DNA of 64,000 nucleotides from Dehalococcoidia bacterium (GTDB taxonomy: Bacteria > Chloroflexota > Dehalococcoidia > Lucifugimonadales > JAGWBF01): assembly GCA_965197405.1 (NCBI GenBank), contig OZ240206.1:1820920-1884919 (forward strand), given 5' to 3'. Each line of letters begins with the position of its first letter. Within the stretch, counting starts at the first letter, position 1. The position numbers were made by a program, and so were the translations under genes. The notes beneath the pieces are model-generated. The model had not been told where the DNA came from. It searched no databases and saw only the letters and a program-made list of their open reading frames with translations. Positions 16,590-39,053 of the stretch are shown here, one piece after another.

Positions 16590-16895
16590 TCATAGGAAAT
16601 GCTAGTTGGCCTTCCCACCGTCACTCCCGCTTTCGCGGGAGTCCAGGGGCGGCGGGGACATGGATAGCCGTTCCCCGTTTGCACGGAGACAAGCTTCACG
16701 GGTATGACGAAGGGTATTTTCATGGTAATACAGGTCCCCATCGCACGTCATTCCGAACGGGGCACTTCGACAAGCTCAGGATAAACTGCACGGAGTGAGG
16801 AATATCAAGGGTAGGCTTATTCGAGAGCATGGATTTTTAGATTCCTCGCTGCGCTCGGAATGGCATCAGAGGGGTTGTAGGCTATTTTCATAGTG
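16590..16895. repeat. Composite repeat tract: two family C units ending ATTTTCAT
   Basis: ACTCCCGCTTTCGCGGGAGT unit like 25653-25792; second unit has the core also seen at 20050 and 37360. Confidence 0.65.
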
Positions 16896-17904
16896 AGCCG
16901 TCGAAGGAGCGCAGCTTGAGGTGCCTGTCGAAAAACTCGACCATTCGCCGGCAATACTCCTCCCGGTGGTCGTTGATCCCATTGACATGCTGGCTGCCCT
17001 CCACAAGCCACAGCTCTTTCGGTTCACGGGCCGCGGCCAAGAGGGTCTCGCTGTTGCCCGGCGACAGGAACTTGTCCTCCATCCCGTGAATCAAGAGGAC
17101 GGCCCTCGGGCTGATAGCGGGTATGTCGTCCTTCGGCACCACGCCATCGGGGGAGATTCCCAGCCGCCACCTGATAATCTGGACGGCGACGGGGGCGCAG
17201 GGGAAGGTCGGCAGGCCGGTGACGGTGGTGAAGGCTTCCTTCACCACCTTGGACGCGGACTCGTAGGGAGAATCCGCGATGGTGGCCTTTATCTCCGGCG
17301 TCTTGGCCGCAGCGAGTATGGCCGCCACCGCTCCCATAGATATGCCAAGGCTGCCCAGGCGCTCCGTGTCCACGTCAGGCCGGGTCTTCAGGTACTCCAC
17401 GGCAGCCACCGCGTCCCGCTGCTCGTAGAAACCCAGGGTCACGGCGTCGCCGTCGCTGTCCCCGCTGCTGCGAAAGTCGAAGAGAAACACCGAATAACCG
17501 GCGCGGTTCAAAACGTCGGCGTGGTCCAACATCTGCTGACGGCGGCACCCATAGCCATGCAGGAGCAAAATAGTCCCGACGCTCTGCCCGGGAATGAACC
17601 ACCCGACCCGCCGGCCATCTCCCGGTACTGGGAAGGACACAAGCTGGGCTGCCGCCTGCAAAGCCGGATAGTCCTCCAGCCCAGGCATGTCCTCGCACGG
17701 TGGCGGGTGGACAGCCTTGTCCGCCGCAACCCAGCAGACCCTACCCAGGAGCAGCGCGTAAAGGACGACCAGCCCCCCGGCAGAGACGGCCAACGCTGCG
17801 AGCGTGACAGGCCCCCCCCCGGTTGCCGACAGGACCGCGATGGCGGCTACCAGGCCGGCGAGGCCCATGCTCATAGCCAGCGTTACGGCTCGCAGTGGCC
17901 TCAA
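16888..17904 (-). CDS. Membrane-anchored alpha/beta hydrolase
   Basis: Hydrophobic N-terminus, LLHGY, GISMGA, IHGMED, GSQH. Confidence 0.85.
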   Translation of the reverse strand: MRPLRAVTLAMSMGLAGLVAAIAVLSATGGGPVTLAALAVSAGGLVVLYALLLGRVCWVAADKAVHPPPCEDMPGLEDYPALQAAAQLVSFPVPGDGRRVGWFIPGQSVGTILLLHGYGCRRQQMLDHADVLNRAGYSVFLFDFRSSGDSDGDAVTLGFYEQRDAVAAVEYLKTRPDVDTERLGSLGISMGAVAAILAAAKTPEIKATIADSPYESASKVVKEAFTTVTGLPTFPCAPVAVQIIRWRLGISPDGVVPKDDIPAISPRAVLLIHGMEDKFLSPGNSETLLAAAREPKELWLVEGSQHVNGINDHREEYCRRMVEFFDRHLKLRSFDGSL

Positions 17905-18704: not shown

Positions 18705-19334
18705 TCAAGGGGATGGCCCGGGGACTTCCCCAGTCCCGATCATGCTGTCACGGGTGACCAGCGCCGCCAGGGCCTCCTCGCCCATGTTTCCGGTCCCTGC
18801 CGGCCGCCTGGGCAAGACCAGATACCGCACCTCGGCGGTGGCGTCCACCACCCGGACCTCCACCCTATCGTCTATCTCAAGGCCGAACTCCCTCAAGACG
18901 GCGCGCGGCTCCCTGACCGCCCGCGACCTGTAAACCTCGCTCTTGTACCACTCAGGGGGCGGGCCCAGCAGGGGTATGGGGTAGCAGGAACACAGGGTGC
19001 ACACGGCAAGGTAGTGGACTGAATCCGTGTTCTCCACCACCTGAACGTTCTGGAGGCGTTTGGGGATGGCGATACCCATTTCGCCCAGGGCTTCCTTGCC
19101 GTTCTTCAGCAGGCGCTGCTTGAAATCGGCGTCAAGCCAGGCCCTGGCAATCACCCTGGCCCCAATGGAGGGGTCCTGCTCTTCGCCCTCCTTGAGGACA
19201 TCCAGGATCTCCTGGGCCGTTATGATTCCCTTGTCCATGAGAAGGTTGCTCAGGGCGATGATGCGCTTCTCGTAGTAGGTCTCCTCGTGGTCCTCCAGAG
19301 GGATGTGTAATGGGTCGTGGTCAACCTCGGCCAT
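18705..19334 (-). CDS. nthA: Nitrile hydratase alpha subunit (Co-type motif)
   Basis: VCTLCSCYP, GARVIARAW-D, PPEWYKS--YRSRAVREPR, VTRDSMIG. Confidence 0.92.
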   Translation of the reverse strand: MAEVDHDPLHIPLEDHEETYYEKRIIALSNLLMDKGIITAQEILDVLKEGEEQDPSIGARVIARAWLDADFKQRLLKNGKEALGEMGIAIPKRLQNVQVVENTDSVHYLAVCTLCSCYPIPLLGPPPEWYKSEVYRSRAVREPRAVLREFGLEIDDRVEVRVVDATAEVRYLVLPRRPAGTGNMGEEALAALVTRDSMIGTGEVPGPSP

Positions 19335-19408
19335 CGGTTCCCCTCCTTGGCTGAAAAATGGGGGCTGAAAAATGCGGAAGTCCCGTTGGGCGGAGACGCC
19401 GGGTGTGG

Positions 19409-19885
19409 CTAGGGCGGCGACACCATCGGGTGGGGCGTTCCCTTACTTTGAAAATCGAACTCCGCGACCAGTCTGCGGGACTCGTCTATGTTCATAATGC
19501 CCTTACGGGCCAGGAGGAACTGGAGGGCTGCGACGCGTCTCTCGTAGTACGTTAGCTCGTGCTCGCCCCTGTCTATGGGCCGGGCGTCGGCTCTCTCCTG
19601 GACAACCGGGGCCAGCCAGTCTTCCCAGACATCCACAAGCACCCGGTCATGTACAAAGTCCGGGTCTTCGTCGTAGAGGTGGGCCATGTGGAAGGACACG
19701 CAATAGAGGGGCAGCGCAGGCTCGCCGGTCCCGCCGTAGGAAAGGTCCGTGGGGTTTCCGGCGGGACCGTGGTGGTAGACGACCACCCCCTTCTTGCCGC
19801 GGATGAAGTAGGGGGTCCTGTTCGTGCCGCCTGGGACCTCCGTCTTGACCATAACCCTGTCACCAACGTTGAAGCTGTTCGTCAT
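19409..19885 (-). CDS. Nitrile hydratase beta-like protein, SH3-like half first
   Basis: F-VGDRV-V...RTPYFIRGKKG...LY-V-F...DVWEDWL, then IDRGEHELTYYERRVAAL--LL--KGI---DESRR. Confidence 0.8.
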   Translation of the reverse strand: MTNSFNVGDRVMVKTEVPGGTNRTPYFIRGKKGVVVYHHGPAGNPTDLSYGGTGEPALPLYCVSFHMAHLYDEDPDFVHDRVLVDVWEDWLAPVVQERADARPIDRGEHELTYYERRVAALQFLLARKGIMNIDESRRLVAEFDFQSKGTPHPMVSPP

Positions 19886-19981
19886 TTGCCGTCCTTCCAC
19901 CTCCAGAATGAGAGAAACCCCCAGGCAAGGCCGATTTTATCAGCAGCATATACCCAGGTCAACATGAATTTATGGCGCACT

Positions 19982-20190
19982 CAGGGTCTTTTGATTCTCG
20001 ACGCTACCTGTCTGCTATCAGGCAGGGGTGAATAAAGGCCCTCGCCGCGTGTCATTCCGAACGGAGCGAAGCGGAGTGAGGAATCTCAGACGTGGGCTTA
20101 TTCGAGAGCATGGATTTTTAGATTCCTCGCTGCGCTCGGAATGACATAAACGGGGCTGCAGGTGGCCTGCCTCCAGCAGGCAGGCGTCAG
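19982..20190. repeat. Family A left end plus REP-like doublet
   Basis: CAGGGTCTTTTGATTCTCGACGC; GTCATTCCGAACGG..AGGAATCT and AGATTCCTCGCTGCGCTCGGAATGAC; right boundary unclear. Confidence 0.65.
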
Positions 20191-20286
20191 GTAGGGACGA
20201 CGCAGAGGAAACTCAACCACCTGAATGGAAACGCCATCGCGGGATGCTTGAAGTGGAGTTGGGCATGTGGTATCTTTAAGGCAGGT

Positions 20287-20363
20287 CGGGGCGTGGCGCA
20301 GCCCGGGAGCGCACCTGCATGGGGTGCAGGGGGTCGCCAGTTCAAATCTGGCCGCCCCGACCA
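20287..20363 (+). tRNA. tRNA-Pro(GGG)
   Basis: CGGGGCG acceptor stem, CCTGC-ATGGGGT-GCAGG anticodon arm, GTTCAAAT T-loop, CCA end. Confidence 0.93.
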
Positions 20364-20444
20364 GTAAAACAAGAGAACTACACACGATTTTACGCACATA
20401 CCCCCTTGAGCCACCCCAATCCATGCAAATGACAGTTGCATCAT

Positions 20445-21407
20445 ATGGCCCGTAATCGCCGGCGCAACGGGACGCAGACCAGTCCCTTTGGGACTCCGGG
20501 ACGGTCCGGACACAACTCCGCCAAGTTTTACTCTAGCCGGCTTTATGACGGCTTGCCCAAAGAGACCCATGCGCCATATGAAGAAAGCCCGCTGCCTGCC
20601 AACTCCGTAAACAGGATTTTCTGCAAGTCCGGCGAGCTGATGGACGACTTGCCGGACCGCAGCATCCACCTGATGGTCACATCGCCGCCGTACAACGTGG
20701 GCAAGGAGTACGACGAAGACCTGACCCTCGACCAGTACCGGGCCTTTCTCAAGCGAGTCATGGCGGAGGTCTATAGAGTATTGGTGCCGGGGGGACGGGC
20801 ATGTCTCAACCTGGCTAACCTGGGCCGCCGGCCTTACTTGCCGCTGCACTCTTACATCATCGAGGATATGCTGTCACTGAATTTCCTGATGCGCGGCGAA
20901 ATAATTTGGGACAAGGCCTCCAGCGCCAGTCCCTCCACGGCGTGGGGAAGCTGGAAGGCGGCGGCCAATCCCACGTTGAGGGATATTCACGAGTATATAC
21001 TGGTATTTTGTAAAGAGTCCTTCAGCCGACCCAAGATAGAGGGGCGAGAGTCAACCATCACGTCGGAAGAGTTCCTGGAGTTCACCAAGAGCATCTGGAG
21101 GTTCCCGGCGGAGCCTGCCCGGAAGGTGGGGCATCCCGCTCCCTATCCGGTAGAGTTGCCCTACAGGTGCGTCCAGCTTTACACCTACGCCGGAGAGGTA
21201 GTCCTCGACCCTTTCATGGGAAGCGGGACCACGGCAGTGGCGGCGGTGAAAACCCGCCGGGATTTCGTCGGCTATGAGATTAGCTCCGAATACTGTGCGC
21301 TGGCCGCCCGGCGCGTCGAGACTTCTCCACAATGGCGAATTTGCAGGCTACAAGTTTCGCAGACAGACTCCCCCTCATCCCTTCGGCAAGCTCAAGGCAG
21401 GCTCTAA
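20445..21407 (+). CDS. Beta-class N4-C/N6-A DNA methyltransferase, no adjacent REase
   Basis: TSPPY before HPAPYP and VLDPFMGSGTT; tail runs into a repeat. Confidence 0.88.
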   Translation: MARNRRRNGTQTSPFGTPGRSGHNSAKFYSSRLYDGLPKETHAPYEESPLPANSVNRIFCKSGELMDDLPDRSIHLMVTSPPYNVGKEYDEDLTLDQYRAFLKRVMAEVYRVLVPGGRACLNLANLGRRPYLPLHSYIIEDMLSLNFLMRGEIIWDKASSASPSTAWGSWKAAANPTLRDIHEYILVFCKESFSRPKIEGRESTITSEEFLEFTKSIWRFPAEPARKVGHPAPYPVELPYRCVQLYTYAGEVVLDPFMGSGTTAVAAVKTRRDFVGYEISSEYCALAARRVETSPQWRICRLQVSQTDSPSSLRQAQGRL

Positions 21408-37274: not shown

Positions 37275-37482
37275 GAGGGTGTTTAACAAGTCCTCGCAGC
37301 CGGTCAGCCGCCGTCAACTTGTCTGCGTCCAGGCGGGCGGGGCAGGGACGACGCAAATGTGTCATTCCGAACGGAGCGAAACGGAGTGAGGAATCTCAGA
37401 TACGGGCTTATTCAAGAGCATGGATTTTAGATCCCTCACTGCGCTCGGAATGACGGGGCTGCATTTGGTTTTTAGCACCCAC
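37275..37482. mobile_element. Family B MITE (GAGGGTGT end)
   Basis: GAGGGTGTTTAACAAGTCCTCG matches the end of the hicA insert; right end AGCACCCAC then TTA; REP-like doublet inside. Confidence 0.65.
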
Positions 37483-37535: not shown

Positions 37536-39053
37536 CTACAGAGTTTCCCAGTTGACGTGCTGCTCGAAGGCGTGGGCTGCTCGCAGGACGGTGGCGTCGT
37601 CGAAGCGTTTGCCTATGAGCATCAGCCCTATCGGCAGCCCATTCGACTTCCCGCAGGGGACGCTTATGGCCGGGTGTCCCGTCATGTCGAAGGGCATCGT
37701 ATTCTGGGGCACGCTCCAGCCGTGGCTGATTAGCTCCACTATGTCCGAGTTGGGCACATGCTTGTGGGCTTTCATCGGGGTGGTGGGCATTGCCAGCAGG
37801 TCCACCTCCTCAAAGGCCCGGTCATAGCTGGCCCGCAGGACGCGCCTCAGATTCTGCGCCCTTCCGTACATCCGCCCATGATACCTCTCGCTCATGTAGG
37901 TGCCCACCAGAAGCAGCATCTTCACCGTCGGCGGAAAATCGTTTGCCTGGGACTGTCGGGCCCTGCCCAGCGCCTCCATCAGGCTGACGTTGTAGAAACC
38001 CTGCCAGCCATACCCGGCGCCGTTGGCCTGAAGCAGGGCGGCGGCGCCCTCTCCCACAAGGCCCCAGCCGATCGCCCCTGCGGTCTCCCTATGGGCGGGG
38101 ACGGACATTTCCCTCGTCTCCGCCCCCAACTCGCTGAACACCTCCATCGCCCTGCGCACGCCGGCATCCACGTCAGGCTCCGACGACTCCCACCCGAATC
38201 CTTCGCTCACTATCCCGATTCGCAGCCCGCTCGCGGACTGTCCCAGGGCTTCGGTGTAGGGCTGCACGGGTACTTCGTACTGCCTGGGGTCCAGGGGGTC
38301 CTTCCCGGCAATCACCTCCAGGGTAAGGGCCACGTCAGCTACGGTCCTTCCCATAGGGCCTACGTGGTCGAAGGTGCTGTCCACGCCGACTATGCCGGTG
38401 TAGGGCACCAGGCTGTGGGTGGGCTTGTGGCCTACGACTCCGCAAAAGGAGGCGGGCATCCTGATAGAGCCTCCCTGGTCTCCGCCGATGGTAATATCTA
38501 TGTAGTCATAATAGAGGGCTGCCCCTGAGCCGGCGGAGGATCCGCCCGTCATATGCTCCGGGTTATGGGGGTTTAGCACAGGCCCCTGGGCGCTGGTATC
38601 CCCCGCGCCCGAGGCGGCGAAGTCGTCCATGCTGAGCATGGCGACGATCTCGGCCCCTTCGTCCAGCAGCCGGGTCACTATGGTGGCGTCAGTGTCCGCC
38701 ACGTAGCCGTCCAGCAATAAAGAGCCGCACTGCATGGGCATGCCAGCCACACAGACGTTGTTTTTCAAGCCGAACCTCTTGCCTGCCAGCTTCCCGGAGG
38801 ACGCACCCTTCAGGACGCACCGGCGCACGATGGCGTTCAGGGGGTCCTCCTCCCGGGAGGGCCTGTAACCCGCATCGCGGTGGGGGTACTTGAGGGGCTC
38901 CTGGGGCATGGGCATCTGCTCCAGGGTCTCGTAGGTGGAGAACATGCCGGGCATCAGCGCTTGAAACTCTGCCACCTCCTGGTCGCTCAGCTCGAAGTGG
39001 TTGGCTGTGGCTATCCTGTGCAGGTCGTCTGGCGTAGGAAGGCGAATTGCCAT
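37536..39053 (-). CDS. Amidase signature family protein
   Basis: K in GLKNN, GGSSAGSG, GGDQGGSIR-PAS-CG, PAISVP. Confidence 0.92.
   Translation of the reverse strand: MAIRLPTPDDLHRIATANHFELSDQEVAEFQALMPGMFSTYETLEQMPMPQEPLKYPHRDAGYRPSREEDPLNAIVRRCVLKGASSGKLAGKRFGLKNNVCVAGMPMQCGSLLLDGYVADTDATIVTRLLDEGAEIVAMLSMDDFAASGAGDTSAQGPVLNPHNPEHMTGGSSAGSGAALYYDYIDITIGGDQGGSIRMPASFCGVVGHKPTHSLVPYTGIVGVDSTFDHVGPMGRTVADVALTLEVIAGKDPLDPRQYEVPVQPYTEALGQSASGLRIGIVSEGFGWESSEPDVDAGVRRAMEVFSELGAETREMSVPAHRETAGAIGWGLVGEGAAALLQANGAGYGWQGFYNVSLMEALGRARQSQANDFPPTVKMLLLVGTYMSERYHGRMYGRAQNLRRVLRASYDRAFEEVDLLAMPTTPMKAHKHVPNSDIVELISHGWSVPQNTMPFDMTGHPAISVPCGKSNGLPIGLMLIGKRFDDATVLRAAHAFEQHVNWETL

Follow-up and report, generated by a model that had tools for sequence, protein, structure and literature searches.

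The window analysed here, a 64,000-nucleotide stretch of a Dehalococcoidia genome, carries a nitrile hydratase (NHase) gene pair whose beta subunit, termed beta' below, consists of the SH3-like half and one helical hairpin located at the opposite end from usual. NHase_beta_N followed by NHase_beta_C, the canonical order, is not the arrangement found in this protein. It is reasonably probable, as judged from sequence comparisons, that the pair represents a functional two-gene Co-type NHase-like hydratase with a minimal, rearranged beta subunit. We found no published description of this architecture, including in a literature search on NHase circular permutation, and public annotation calls beta' simply “nitrile hydratase subunit beta”.

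Nitrile hydratases are major industrial catalysts (acrylamide, nicotinamide), and the need for a beta subunit and an activator complicates their expression and engineering. A lineage having only the SH3 half and one hairpin, in swapped order and with no activator, suggests what regions of beta an NHase can do without and how small an industrially used NHase can be.

Structure of the Gene Pair

The sequence-only reading had placed an NHase with an apparently circularly permuted, shortened beta subunit at 18705–19885, and this span matches alpha plus the ATG-started beta' (Table 1). The strings that it quoted, NRTPYFIRGK and IDRGEHELTYYERRVAAL...IDESRR, are both found in beta', and the order that it described, the SH3-like half first and the helical segment after it, agrees with the positions of NHase_beta_C and of the hairpin. 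The permutation itself stands in part: the order is swapped and the protein is shortened, but only about 40 of the approximately 120 aa of the N-half are kept, and with neither the N-arm (H-D-x-G-G) nor hairpin 2 represented, beta' falls short of a full circular permutation.

Table 1. Features of the beta'-alpha locus in window coordinates (beta' residues in the 158-aa numbering)
Feature	Position	Strand	Remarks
Alpha gene	18705..19334	minus	209 aa + stop; Co-type NHase alpha subunit
Metal-binding motif C112-T-L-C-S-C-Y118	18981..19001	minus	Invariant in 14/14 family alphas
Alpha N-terminal hairpin, aa 15–53	19176..19292	minus	Paralogue of the beta' hairpin (BLASTP, hhalign)
Beta' gene	19409..19885	minus	158 aa + stop; candidate minimal, rearranged NHase beta subunit
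C-terminal tail, beta' aa 149–158	19412..19441	minus	Invariant H152-P153-M154
Helix-turn-helix hairpin, beta' aa 108–148	19442..19564	minus	AF2, hhalign, HMM scores, dN/dS 0.18
R137	19475..19477 (codon)	minus	Aligns with beta-Arg52 (hhalign)
Linker, beta' aa 93–107	19565..19609	minus	Poorly conserved; median dN/dS 0.73; pLDDT down to ~50
SH3-like NHase_beta_C domain, beta' aa 1–92	19610..19885	minus	Pfam E = 2.3e-18
Promoter-like site upstream of beta'	19934..19962	minus	TTGACC, 17 nt, TG-n-TAAAAT; 10/12 matches; consensus match only

The beta'-like ORF on the minus strand extends over 19409–19900 with a GTG start (163 aa). This GTG sits inside the ribosome-binding site of beta', and a GGAGG lies 13–17 nt upstream of the ATG at 19885; the starts of the homologues and the GGAGG spacing indicate that this ATG is the true start, giving 158 aa. 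Residues R142 and R28 of the 163-aa ORF are thus R137 and R23 of beta'. In the longer ORF, Pfam detects NHase_beta_C only (aa 6–97), with nothing else above threshold and no significant NHase_beta_N, and PF21006 reaches 12.6 bits (E = 0.3) on the hairpin. The canonical NHase beta model TIGR03888 matches over its positions 134–226 only, at 73.5 bits against a cut-off of 152.2, and the SH3 part aligns with residues 130–218 of PDB 3qxe_B (E = 1.2e-14). Foldseek, a sequential aligner beyond whose reach a permuted arrangement lies, aligns 91–95 residues of the beta' model to NHase beta and thiocyanate hydrolase (SCNase) alpha, in the SH3 part only; the best ESM Atlas match (score 0.76) belongs to an ordinary NHase beta cluster. 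The AF2 monomer has helices at 118–132 and 138–153 (163-aa numbering), and the hairpin carries the motifs E-H-E-L-[ST]-Y-Y-E-R-R ... K-G-x-x-N-x-D-E-x-R-R.

The alpha gene is an ordinary one. Pfam NHase_alpha scores 254.5 bits (cut-off 27.2), and solved NHase alphas align over the full length with E values from 1e-54 to 1e-64 (4e-61 for PDB 1v29_A), the closest all being nitrile hydratases. The Co-type CTLCSCY reported in the sequence-only reading is present within VCTLCSCYP, which is invariant in the family alphas; we take the Thr and Tyr of the V-C-T-L-C-S-C-Y claw to mark the Co type. The protein falls 11 bits short of the NHase alpha equivalog TIGR01323 (238.6 vs 249.85 bits) and is also under the cut-off of the SCNase gamma equivalog TIGR03887 (168.3 vs 291.45 bits). 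TIGR03793 matches aa 57–110 with 86 bits; an NHLP RiPP leader peptide was considered and rejected, since the alpha is complete and carries the claw and the neighbours include no maturase.

Origin of the C-Terminal Hairpin

As judged from profile and BLASTP comparisons, the beta' hairpin is a member of the NHase hairpin repeat. Its hhalign match to canonical beta_N hairpin 1 (Prob 96.4, E = 1.2e-9, 42 columns) sets R137 on beta-Arg52 and D134-E135 on D49-E50, and the segment does align to the N-half of beta, as had been proposed. However, its specific descent from this half is less evident because hairpin 2 and the alpha N-terminus match at least as well: the profile comparison with canonical hairpin 2 gives E = 7e-14, that with the N-terminal hairpin of the pair's own alpha gives Prob 97.7 and E = 2.4e-12 (hhalign), and by profile score the beta' hairpin is closer to these two than to hairpin 1. 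The comparison shows that the NHase helical elements, namely the alpha N-terminus and both beta hairpins, are one shuffled repeat module, and the hairpin may have arisen as a duplicate of the alpha N-terminus.

If so, the hairpin could have a purely structural role, for example as a partner of the alpha hairpin or as a dimer-interface substitute for the helical domain that was lost, and the enzyme would work with one beta arginine only; a tandem copy of the beta_C/alpha junction, with the beta_C stop then being read through, exemplifies a possible route. We consider this reading unlikely, although it is favoured by several observations. By BLASTP, the hairpin shares 17 of 39 residues (44%, E = 3e-8) with the N-terminus of its own alpha, and a core-only hairpin HMM ranks alpha N-termini at the top (30–43 bits vs 8–33 bits for split hairpin 1). 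The beta' profile spans the beta-stop-alpha junction of ordinary operons (positions 3–141, one stop inside), beta_C-alpha fusions lacking beta_N occur naturally (P0053, P0058, and P0070), and the nearly neutral linker fits a former intergenic stretch.

The flanks of the hairpin tell against this origin. P-I-D-R-x-E-H-E upstream and N-x-D-E-x-R-R downstream are similar to hairpin 1 in split beta_N genes of sister genomes, and with the flank included, a 64-position segment HMM ranks hairpin 1 of the split beta_N of one sister genome (G314) first at 40.5 bits, the match covering PID..EH.LS and NTDE.RR. A tblastn-type search of the genome carrying the window with the G314 beta_N likewise placed its hairpin 1 (aa 14–52) on the beta' hairpin with 46% identity. 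The Arg is at G+8, as in canonical and split hairpin 1, while the alpha hairpins of the family itself have no Arg at this position. Strings similar to D-x-R-R also occur in some alpha N-termini of split-type relatives, which means that hairpin 1 shares the motif with other elements. The DNA alignment of the beta' and alpha hairpins contains no long identical tract, which argues against the duplication and led us to reject gene conversion between them. Even if the duplication did occur, the conserved D-E-x-R-R would point to a regained Arg function.

Conservation and Distribution of Beta'

The arrangement is not fortuitous: we found 48 homologues of beta', 38 of them 156–165 aa in length, and in all 15 related loci the gene is adjacent to alpha. 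Within the GTDB family, beta' is present in 16 of 28 genomes, all of uncultured Dehalococcoidia, with the frame open at full length, and a beta_N gene was found in none of 15 of these 16, the only match being the adjacent alpha N-terminus. Profile and tblastn-type searches of the 3.38-Mb genome carrying the window detected no beta_N gene, and no activator gene was found there. Neither of the outcomes named as contrary to the sequence-only reading, a C-terminal segment unrelated to the beta N-half or a unique fusion with a separate N-half gene elsewhere, was thus observed.

The hairpin and the SH3 domain are under purifying selection, the hairpin value of 0.18 being close to the dN/dS of 0.155 for the SH3 part. 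In an alignment of 28 beta' sequences (163-aa numbering), E140 is invariant, and at least 90% of the sequences keep D139 and R142; one of the 28 family members has Q at position 142 and R at the next one. The hairpin's Y-Y shows variation. The D-E-x-R motif is retained in the distant members P0044 and P0050, the latter of which misses the H-P-M tail. Frameshift-like aberrant versions from metagenome assemblies (P0045 and P0043) might suggest that beta' is a gene in decay or an artefact of gene calling, but this is effectively refuted by the intact frame in the 16 genomes, the overall dN/dS of 0.20, the strong RBS (present before both beta' and alpha), and the alpha pairing kept at every one of the 15 loci.

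Canonical, split, and rearranged NHase forms occur side by side in one bacterial family, which allows the evolutionary steps to be followed. In the alpha tree, the beta'-type alphas form one clade (100/100) adjoining the split-type alphas of the same family (84/84), and the beta' arrangement seems to have had a single origin.

Putative Active-Site Arginines and the Proposed Enzyme

Two conserved arginines of NHase beta form salt bridges with the oxidised cysteines, and mutants at R56 are inactive, according to PMC7193024. Both arginines have sequence-level counterparts in beta', R23 and R137, and at this level the earlier claim of both motifs in reversed order holds. R23 (codon 19817–19819) is invariant and R29 near-invariant; in an ungapped alignment to P. 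putida 3qxe_B, R23 falls on R149, which by offset is position 157 in 1ire_B if no gap precedes it.

We suggest that alpha binds the metal via its C-T-L-C-S-C claw, and that the SH3-like domain of beta' would dock on alpha and contribute R23 as the counterpart of beta-Arg157 (P. thermophila numbering). The C-terminal hairpin would contribute R137 in the same register as beta-Arg52/56 (G-x-x-N-x-D-E-x-R), so that both arginines holding the oxidised cysteine ligands may have been kept despite the loss of about 60% of the beta N-domain. The lost parts are the N-arm and hairpin 2, which bears the Tyr/Trp pocket residues; the absence of residues donated by hairpin 2 counts against the proposed enzyme, and its substrate pocket is probably more open. 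Prediction of the alpha + beta' complex scored 0.19, under the mark of 0.32, and so speaks neither for nor against binding or the arginine placement, and the AF2 model of beta' is a monomer carrying no inter-subunit information. We infer the active-site position of R137, as well as the activity, self-maturation, and substrate of the pair.

The pair probably matures without a separate activator, by analogy with the three-subunit NHases, which have no activator gene (PMC7329996); the S. canus enzyme ScNHase is described there as maturing without an activator, with the beta N-half AnhD acting as a chaperone. The same source underlies the proposal, which we consider improbable, that the main task of beta' is maturation, as an in-built metallochaperone or self-subunit-swapping chaperone, with alpha a sufficient catalyst: apart from the chaperone role of AnhD, Nelp et al. 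are cited in it for activity of ToyJ as alpha only. Such a role would agree with the lack of an activator gene in the genome and with a weak match of TIGR03889 (beta' aa 92–139 on positions 24–71 of 74, E = 0.019). However, the TIGR03889 scores of 15.0 and 16.3 bits are far under the 46-bit cut-off, for which reason we rejected beta' as an NHase accessory protein; the SH3 domain with its invariant R23 is a feature of catalytic subunits; and AnhA alone has zero activity in Table 2 of PMC7329996. A maturation role is compatible with the proposed two-gene hydratase and does not exclude it.

A more speculative and rather doubtful extension is a self-sufficient minimal NHase in which the relocated hairpin would serve both as the Arg52-type donor and as a built-in swapping/metal chaperone, with the pocket opened by the loss of hairpin 2 for bulky natural nitriles of the host surroundings; the RNA-library contigs stem from sponge holobionts, which produce nitrile metabolites. 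If this is true, beta' would be the smallest natural beta subunit supporting catalysis and a template for compact, activator-free NHase engineering.

Comparison with Known Systems

The pair resembles canonical Co-type NHases (P. putida 3QXE, P. thermophila 1IRE, and Bacillus smithii 1V29) in the full-length alpha homology with VCTLCSCY, in the SH3-like beta domain with a conserved arginine, and in the gene order, beta then alpha. Canonical beta, in contrast, has about 205–235 aa with an N-arm and two hairpins before SH3, while beta' has 158 aa, lacks the N-arm and hairpin 2, and has its sole hairpin after SH3 in a genome without an activator gene.

In split-beta NHases (S. canus AnhD/AnhE/AnhA and S. 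rimosus ToyJKL; the sister-genome operons L032–L038 are of this type), the SH3 half is also a small polypeptide of its own. These systems have a complete N-half gene (100–136 aa, N-arm and both hairpins) upstream of the SH3 gene, whereas the beta' genome has no separate N-half gene and the single hairpin is fused behind SH3. SCNase (alpha/beta/gamma, PDB 2DD4) has an SH3-only alpha chain aligning with beta' aa 1–95 (Foldseek E = 7e-7) and a gamma chain homologous to the alpha of the window (E = 3e-41), but, unlike the pair, it possesses a separate N-half beta subunit.

In natural fusion proteins, both the beta-alpha fusions of the eukaryote type (PMC2603476 and PMC3323583) and the metagenomic beta_C-alpha fusions mentioned above, SH3 leads directly into the alpha N-terminal hairpin, and the beta' profile therefore matches them over positions 1–111, 1–147, or 3–139. 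Their one hairpin is part of alpha, while the beta' of the window terminates behind a hairpin of its own, a second one being present in alpha. Accessory chaperones (NhlE, P14K type, TIGR03889) are short, helical, and weakly similar to the beta N-half; unlike beta', they are free-standing and have no SH3 domain.

Genomic Context, Expression Signals, and Substrate

Upstream of beta', no riboswitch or leader RNA was found, Rfam giving tRNA-Pro only on 19850–20450. RNA-library contigs from sponge metatranscriptomes cover both genes; they come from one study and have a low depth, similar to that of the neighbouring plsY, so the RNA evidence may include DNA carry-over. Stretches of beta' left uncovered by contigs in some runs carry no evidential weight.

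That the pair performs a different reaction (thiocyanate hydrolysis, hydration of other C-N/C-S multiple bonds, or work on a specialised natural product) appears very improbable to us. The alpha score below the NHase equivalog cut-off, the absence of the pocket-forming hairpin 2, the varying flanks of the 15 loci, and the origin of the RNA contigs would fit it, sponges being producers of nitriles such as aeroplysinin-1 (PMC3766881). The TIGR03887 score, far from the SCNase gamma cut-off, and the closest solved alphas being nitrile hydratases speak against it, and no conserved neighbour indicates a specific pathway. The partially purified aeroplysinin-1 enzyme of Aplysina has 26- and 72-kDa bands and is Mn-dependent (PMC3766881), features at odds with subunits of 209 and 158 residues; we rejected a link to it and regard it as ecological background only.

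The neighbours of the pair are PlsY, an alpha/beta hydrolase, tRNA-Pro, and a DNA methylase; neither an activator nor an amidase gene adjoins it, as the sequence-only reading had stated. The genes next to the pair in the window (PlsY, hydrolase, methylase, and others) do not reappear at any of the 15 related loci. In a scan of 56 of the 142 flanking ORFs, Amidohydro_2 upstream, CoA-transferase III downstream, and a convergent TPP enzyme each occur in 5 of the 15 loci, and these recurrent neighbours follow sub-clades and so are not independent evidence. The genome carrying the window encodes 22 amidase-signature paralogues, the nearest at about 37584–38807 of the window.

Architecture of the gene pair

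The beta'/alpha pair is a real, conserved and lineage-restricted nitrile hydratase (NHase) variant with a rearranged minimal beta subunit. Pfam recognised NHase_beta_C alone in beta' (aa 1-92, E 2.3e-18), the NHase beta model TIGR03888 aligned over its positions 134-226 only, and PDB matches were limited to NHase beta C-terminal halves (3qxe_B residues 130-218, E 1.2e-14) and the SCNase alpha chain. In the AlphaFold2 model (mean pLDDT 73.5), an SH3-like barrel is joined by a linker of low confidence to two helices (aa 113-127 and 133-148); Foldseek aligned 91-95 residues, all in the barrel. The sequence-only reading had described an apparently circularly permuted, shortened beta subunit: the architecture is real, but "circular permutation" is too strong, since the N-arm and the second helix-turn-helix unit of canonical beta_N (hairpin 2) are missing.

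In the family alignment A1 (n=28), R23, E135 and H152-P153-M154 are invariant, while R29, D134 and R137 are kept in at least 90% of members. R23 pairs with P. putida beta R149 in an ungapped alignment, equivalent by offset to P. thermophila position 157. Neither canonical nor split beta showed a counterpart of the H-P-M tail. Median pairwise dN/dS was lowest in the SH3 domain (0.155) and the hairpin (0.18), followed by the tail (0.48) and the linker (0.73); the values are rough, with dS near saturation. Residues are numbered on the 158-aa protein, and numbers for the 163-aa ORF are higher by 5; the longer version starts at a GTG inside the ribosome-binding site, and ATG is the start in all homologues. 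The ribosome-binding sites of both genes are strong.

Features of the locus (window coordinates)
Feature	Position	Strand	Remarks
alpha gene	18705-19334	-	209 aa; AAGGAGG 7 nt upstream
beta' gene	19409-19885	-	ATG start; 158 aa; GGAGG 13-17 nt upstream
beta' C-terminal tail, H-P-M	19412-19441	-	aa 149-158; invariant in 28/28 family members
Promoter-like site	19962-19934	-	TTGACC, 17 nt, TG-TAAAAT; 10/12 matches
Dispersed repeat	20030-20160		~100-130 nt; between beta' promoter and tRNA-Pro
Further repeat copies	near 16820-16900; 37359-37463
N6/N4 DNA methylase	20436-21407	+	PF01555, E 4e-42; adjoins tRNA-Pro
Amidase signature paralogue	~37584-38807		PF01425

The alpha subunit matches Pfam NHase_alpha with 254.5 bits, among solved structures it is closest to NHase alphas of the Co type (E 1e-54 to 1e-64), and the V-C-T-L-C-S-C-Y-P claw is unchanged in 14/14 family alphas. 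Its NCBIfam equivalog score of 238.6 bits is 11 bits short of the cut-off (249.85), and with the thiocyanate hydrolase gamma model it reached 168 bits, far under the cut-off of 291.

Missing partners and proposed mechanism

In the source genome, a single 3.38-Mb contig with a completeness of 94.6%, alpha and the SH3 domain are each single-copy. A search with PF21006 (NHase_beta_N) gave just two matches, at 21 bits to the alpha N-terminus and at 12.6 bits to the beta' hairpin, and no separate beta_N; the accessory protein model TIGR03889 (cut-off 46) found the same two segments at 16 and 14.5 bits, and no activator. Among the 28 genomes of the GTDB family, 11 have a true beta_N (64-121 bits), which was not found in 15 of the 16 beta' genomes. 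The one genome with both, G308, has a complete canonical operon elsewhere.

In PMC7193024, beta R52 and R157 are described as conserved and salt-bridging the oxidised cysteines, and the R56Y and R56E variants as inactive. Beta' has an arginine at both aligned positions and lacks the N-arm and hairpin 2, a pattern expected if the two arginine contacts were the indispensable contribution of beta; R137 and R23 would then take the roles of the cysteine-bridging arginines. Maturation of the pair without an activator is plausible, because PMC7329996 reports that a three-subunit NHase lacking an activator gene still matures, with the N-half as chaperone, and cites alpha-only activity for ToyJ.

Origin of the C-terminal hairpin

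Profiles were built locally from A1 and 31 canonical beta representatives, leaving out four aberrant rows (P0194, P0166, P0097, P0054); the E-values of profile-profile matches are single comparisons. The beta' hairpin matched canonical hairpin 2 (Y-Y-E-x-W ... E-K-G; Prob 98.1, E 6.9e-14), the family alpha N-terminus (Prob 97.7, E 2.4e-12; by BLASTP 17/39 identical, E 3e-8) and the Arg52-bearing canonical hairpin 1 (Prob 96.4, E 1.2e-9, 42 columns), where D134-E135-x-R137 falls on D49-E50-x-R52. The alpha N-terminus in turn matched hairpin 2 (Prob 97.4, E 9.7e-12) and hairpin 1 (Prob 73, E 3e-5), and the two canonical hairpins matched each other (Prob 75, E 2.6e-5). All four are therefore copies of a single helix-turn-helix module.

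The beta' hairpin has a hybrid sequence, with a first helix (T-Y-Y-E-R-R) resembling hairpin 2 and the alpha N-terminus and with hairpin 1-like flanks. The beta' consensus P-I-D-R-E-E-H-E-L-S-Y-Y-E-R-R...M-N-T-D-E-S-R-R can be set beside split beta_N hairpin 1 of locus L037 (...P-I-D-Q-S-E-H-T-L-S-D-W-E-R-R...I-N-T-D-E-L-R-R...) and L033 (G-P-I-D-R-T-E-H-E). A 64-position HMM scored split beta_N hairpin 1 of a sister genome highest (40.5 bits); against the source genome, residues 14-52 of the sister split beta_N matched the beta' hairpin (46% identity) and residues 55-88 the alpha N-terminus. With a core-only 38-position HMM, alpha N-termini rank first (30-43 bits), split hairpin 1 giving 8-33 and split hairpin 2 19-32 bits. 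The sequence of the beta' hairpin fits either origin, hairpin 1 or the alpha N-terminus. Duplication of the beta/alpha junction is a simple alternative route to the SH3-plus-hairpin order, because in ordinary operons the A1 profile matches straight through the stop codon between beta and alpha and beta_C-alpha fusions without beta_N occur naturally.

Metagenomic P0163 (201 aa) and P0181 (186 aa) are each made up of two tandem NHase_beta_N domains without an SH3 domain, adding to the evidence for shuffling of the hairpin module. A further protein, P0148 (607 aa), is a natural beta_N, beta_C and alpha fusion with a C-terminal HAD-like hydrolase domain.

Distribution and evolutionary setting

Among 103 candidates, 48 were beta' homologues at E <= 1e-3, 38 of them 156-165 aa long; NCBI names one "nitrile hydratase subunit beta [Dehalococcoidia bacterium]". 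An exhaustive representative search without length filter gave 1078 matches at E <= 1e-3 and only 6 at E <= 1e-30, therefore the family represents one or two clusters at 50% identity. P0050 (174 aa), a more distant member, combines the SH3 domain with a hairpin bearing L-D-E-V-R-R and lacks the H-P-M tail. When each species was represented by one genome, a pattern scan revealed 15 loci, all in Dehalococcoidia MAGs, with alpha immediately downstream in 15/15. Full-length beta' occurs in 16/28 genomes of the GTDB family, the source genome included, and in 0/300 other sampled genomes of the class, where the top match (84 bits) runs across a stop codon.

Three NHase architectures coexist in this family (L032-L040 and the beta' loci): canonical beta with alpha (G304, G308), split beta_N (100-136 aa) and beta_C (95-138 aa ORFs) with alpha (G302, G309, G311, G312, G314, G321, G323), and beta' with alpha; G308 carries both the canonical and beta' operons. 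In the alpha tree (29 rows, LG+C20), the 14 alphas of beta' type group in a single clade (100/100, long stem of 0.64) that joins four split-type alphas (84/84); fusion-derived rows are long branches of unsure placement. The split-operon alpha of G314 (L037:1009-1686, -) has a His-rich N-terminus (…HHRHGHHGDHDH…) before the hairpin, which may be a built-in metal-binding stretch.

Expression and surroundings

In one sponge metatranscriptome study, 41-48% of sampled words were present in four RNA libraries. Contigs of these libraries match alpha and portions of beta' (at least 95% identity, depth 2-9), one spanning the gene junction (19202-19514); DNA carry-over is possible, because plsY has a similar depth.

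No conserved neighbours of the pair were found across 15 related loci. Scanning 56 of the 142 flanking ORFs for domains showed three recurrent genes, each at 5 loci: Amidohydro_2 on the upstream side, CoA-transferase III on the downstream side, and a TPP enzyme in convergent orientation. These recurrent genes track sub-clades. The DNA methylase is not syntenic in relatives and may belong to an inserted element. Amidase signature genes are markedly expanded (22 paralogues in the 3.4-Mb source genome) and could serve amide products of the predicted hydratase.

The dispersed repeat had no Rfam match; it has at least 43 matches of 79-100% identity in the 3.38-Mb genome, its own copy included (40 of 326 first-look candidates scored). 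Its summed depth in the four sponge RNA libraries was 120-280, with many loose ends, versus 2-9 for flanking genes, and the repeat resembles a REP- or MITE-like element.
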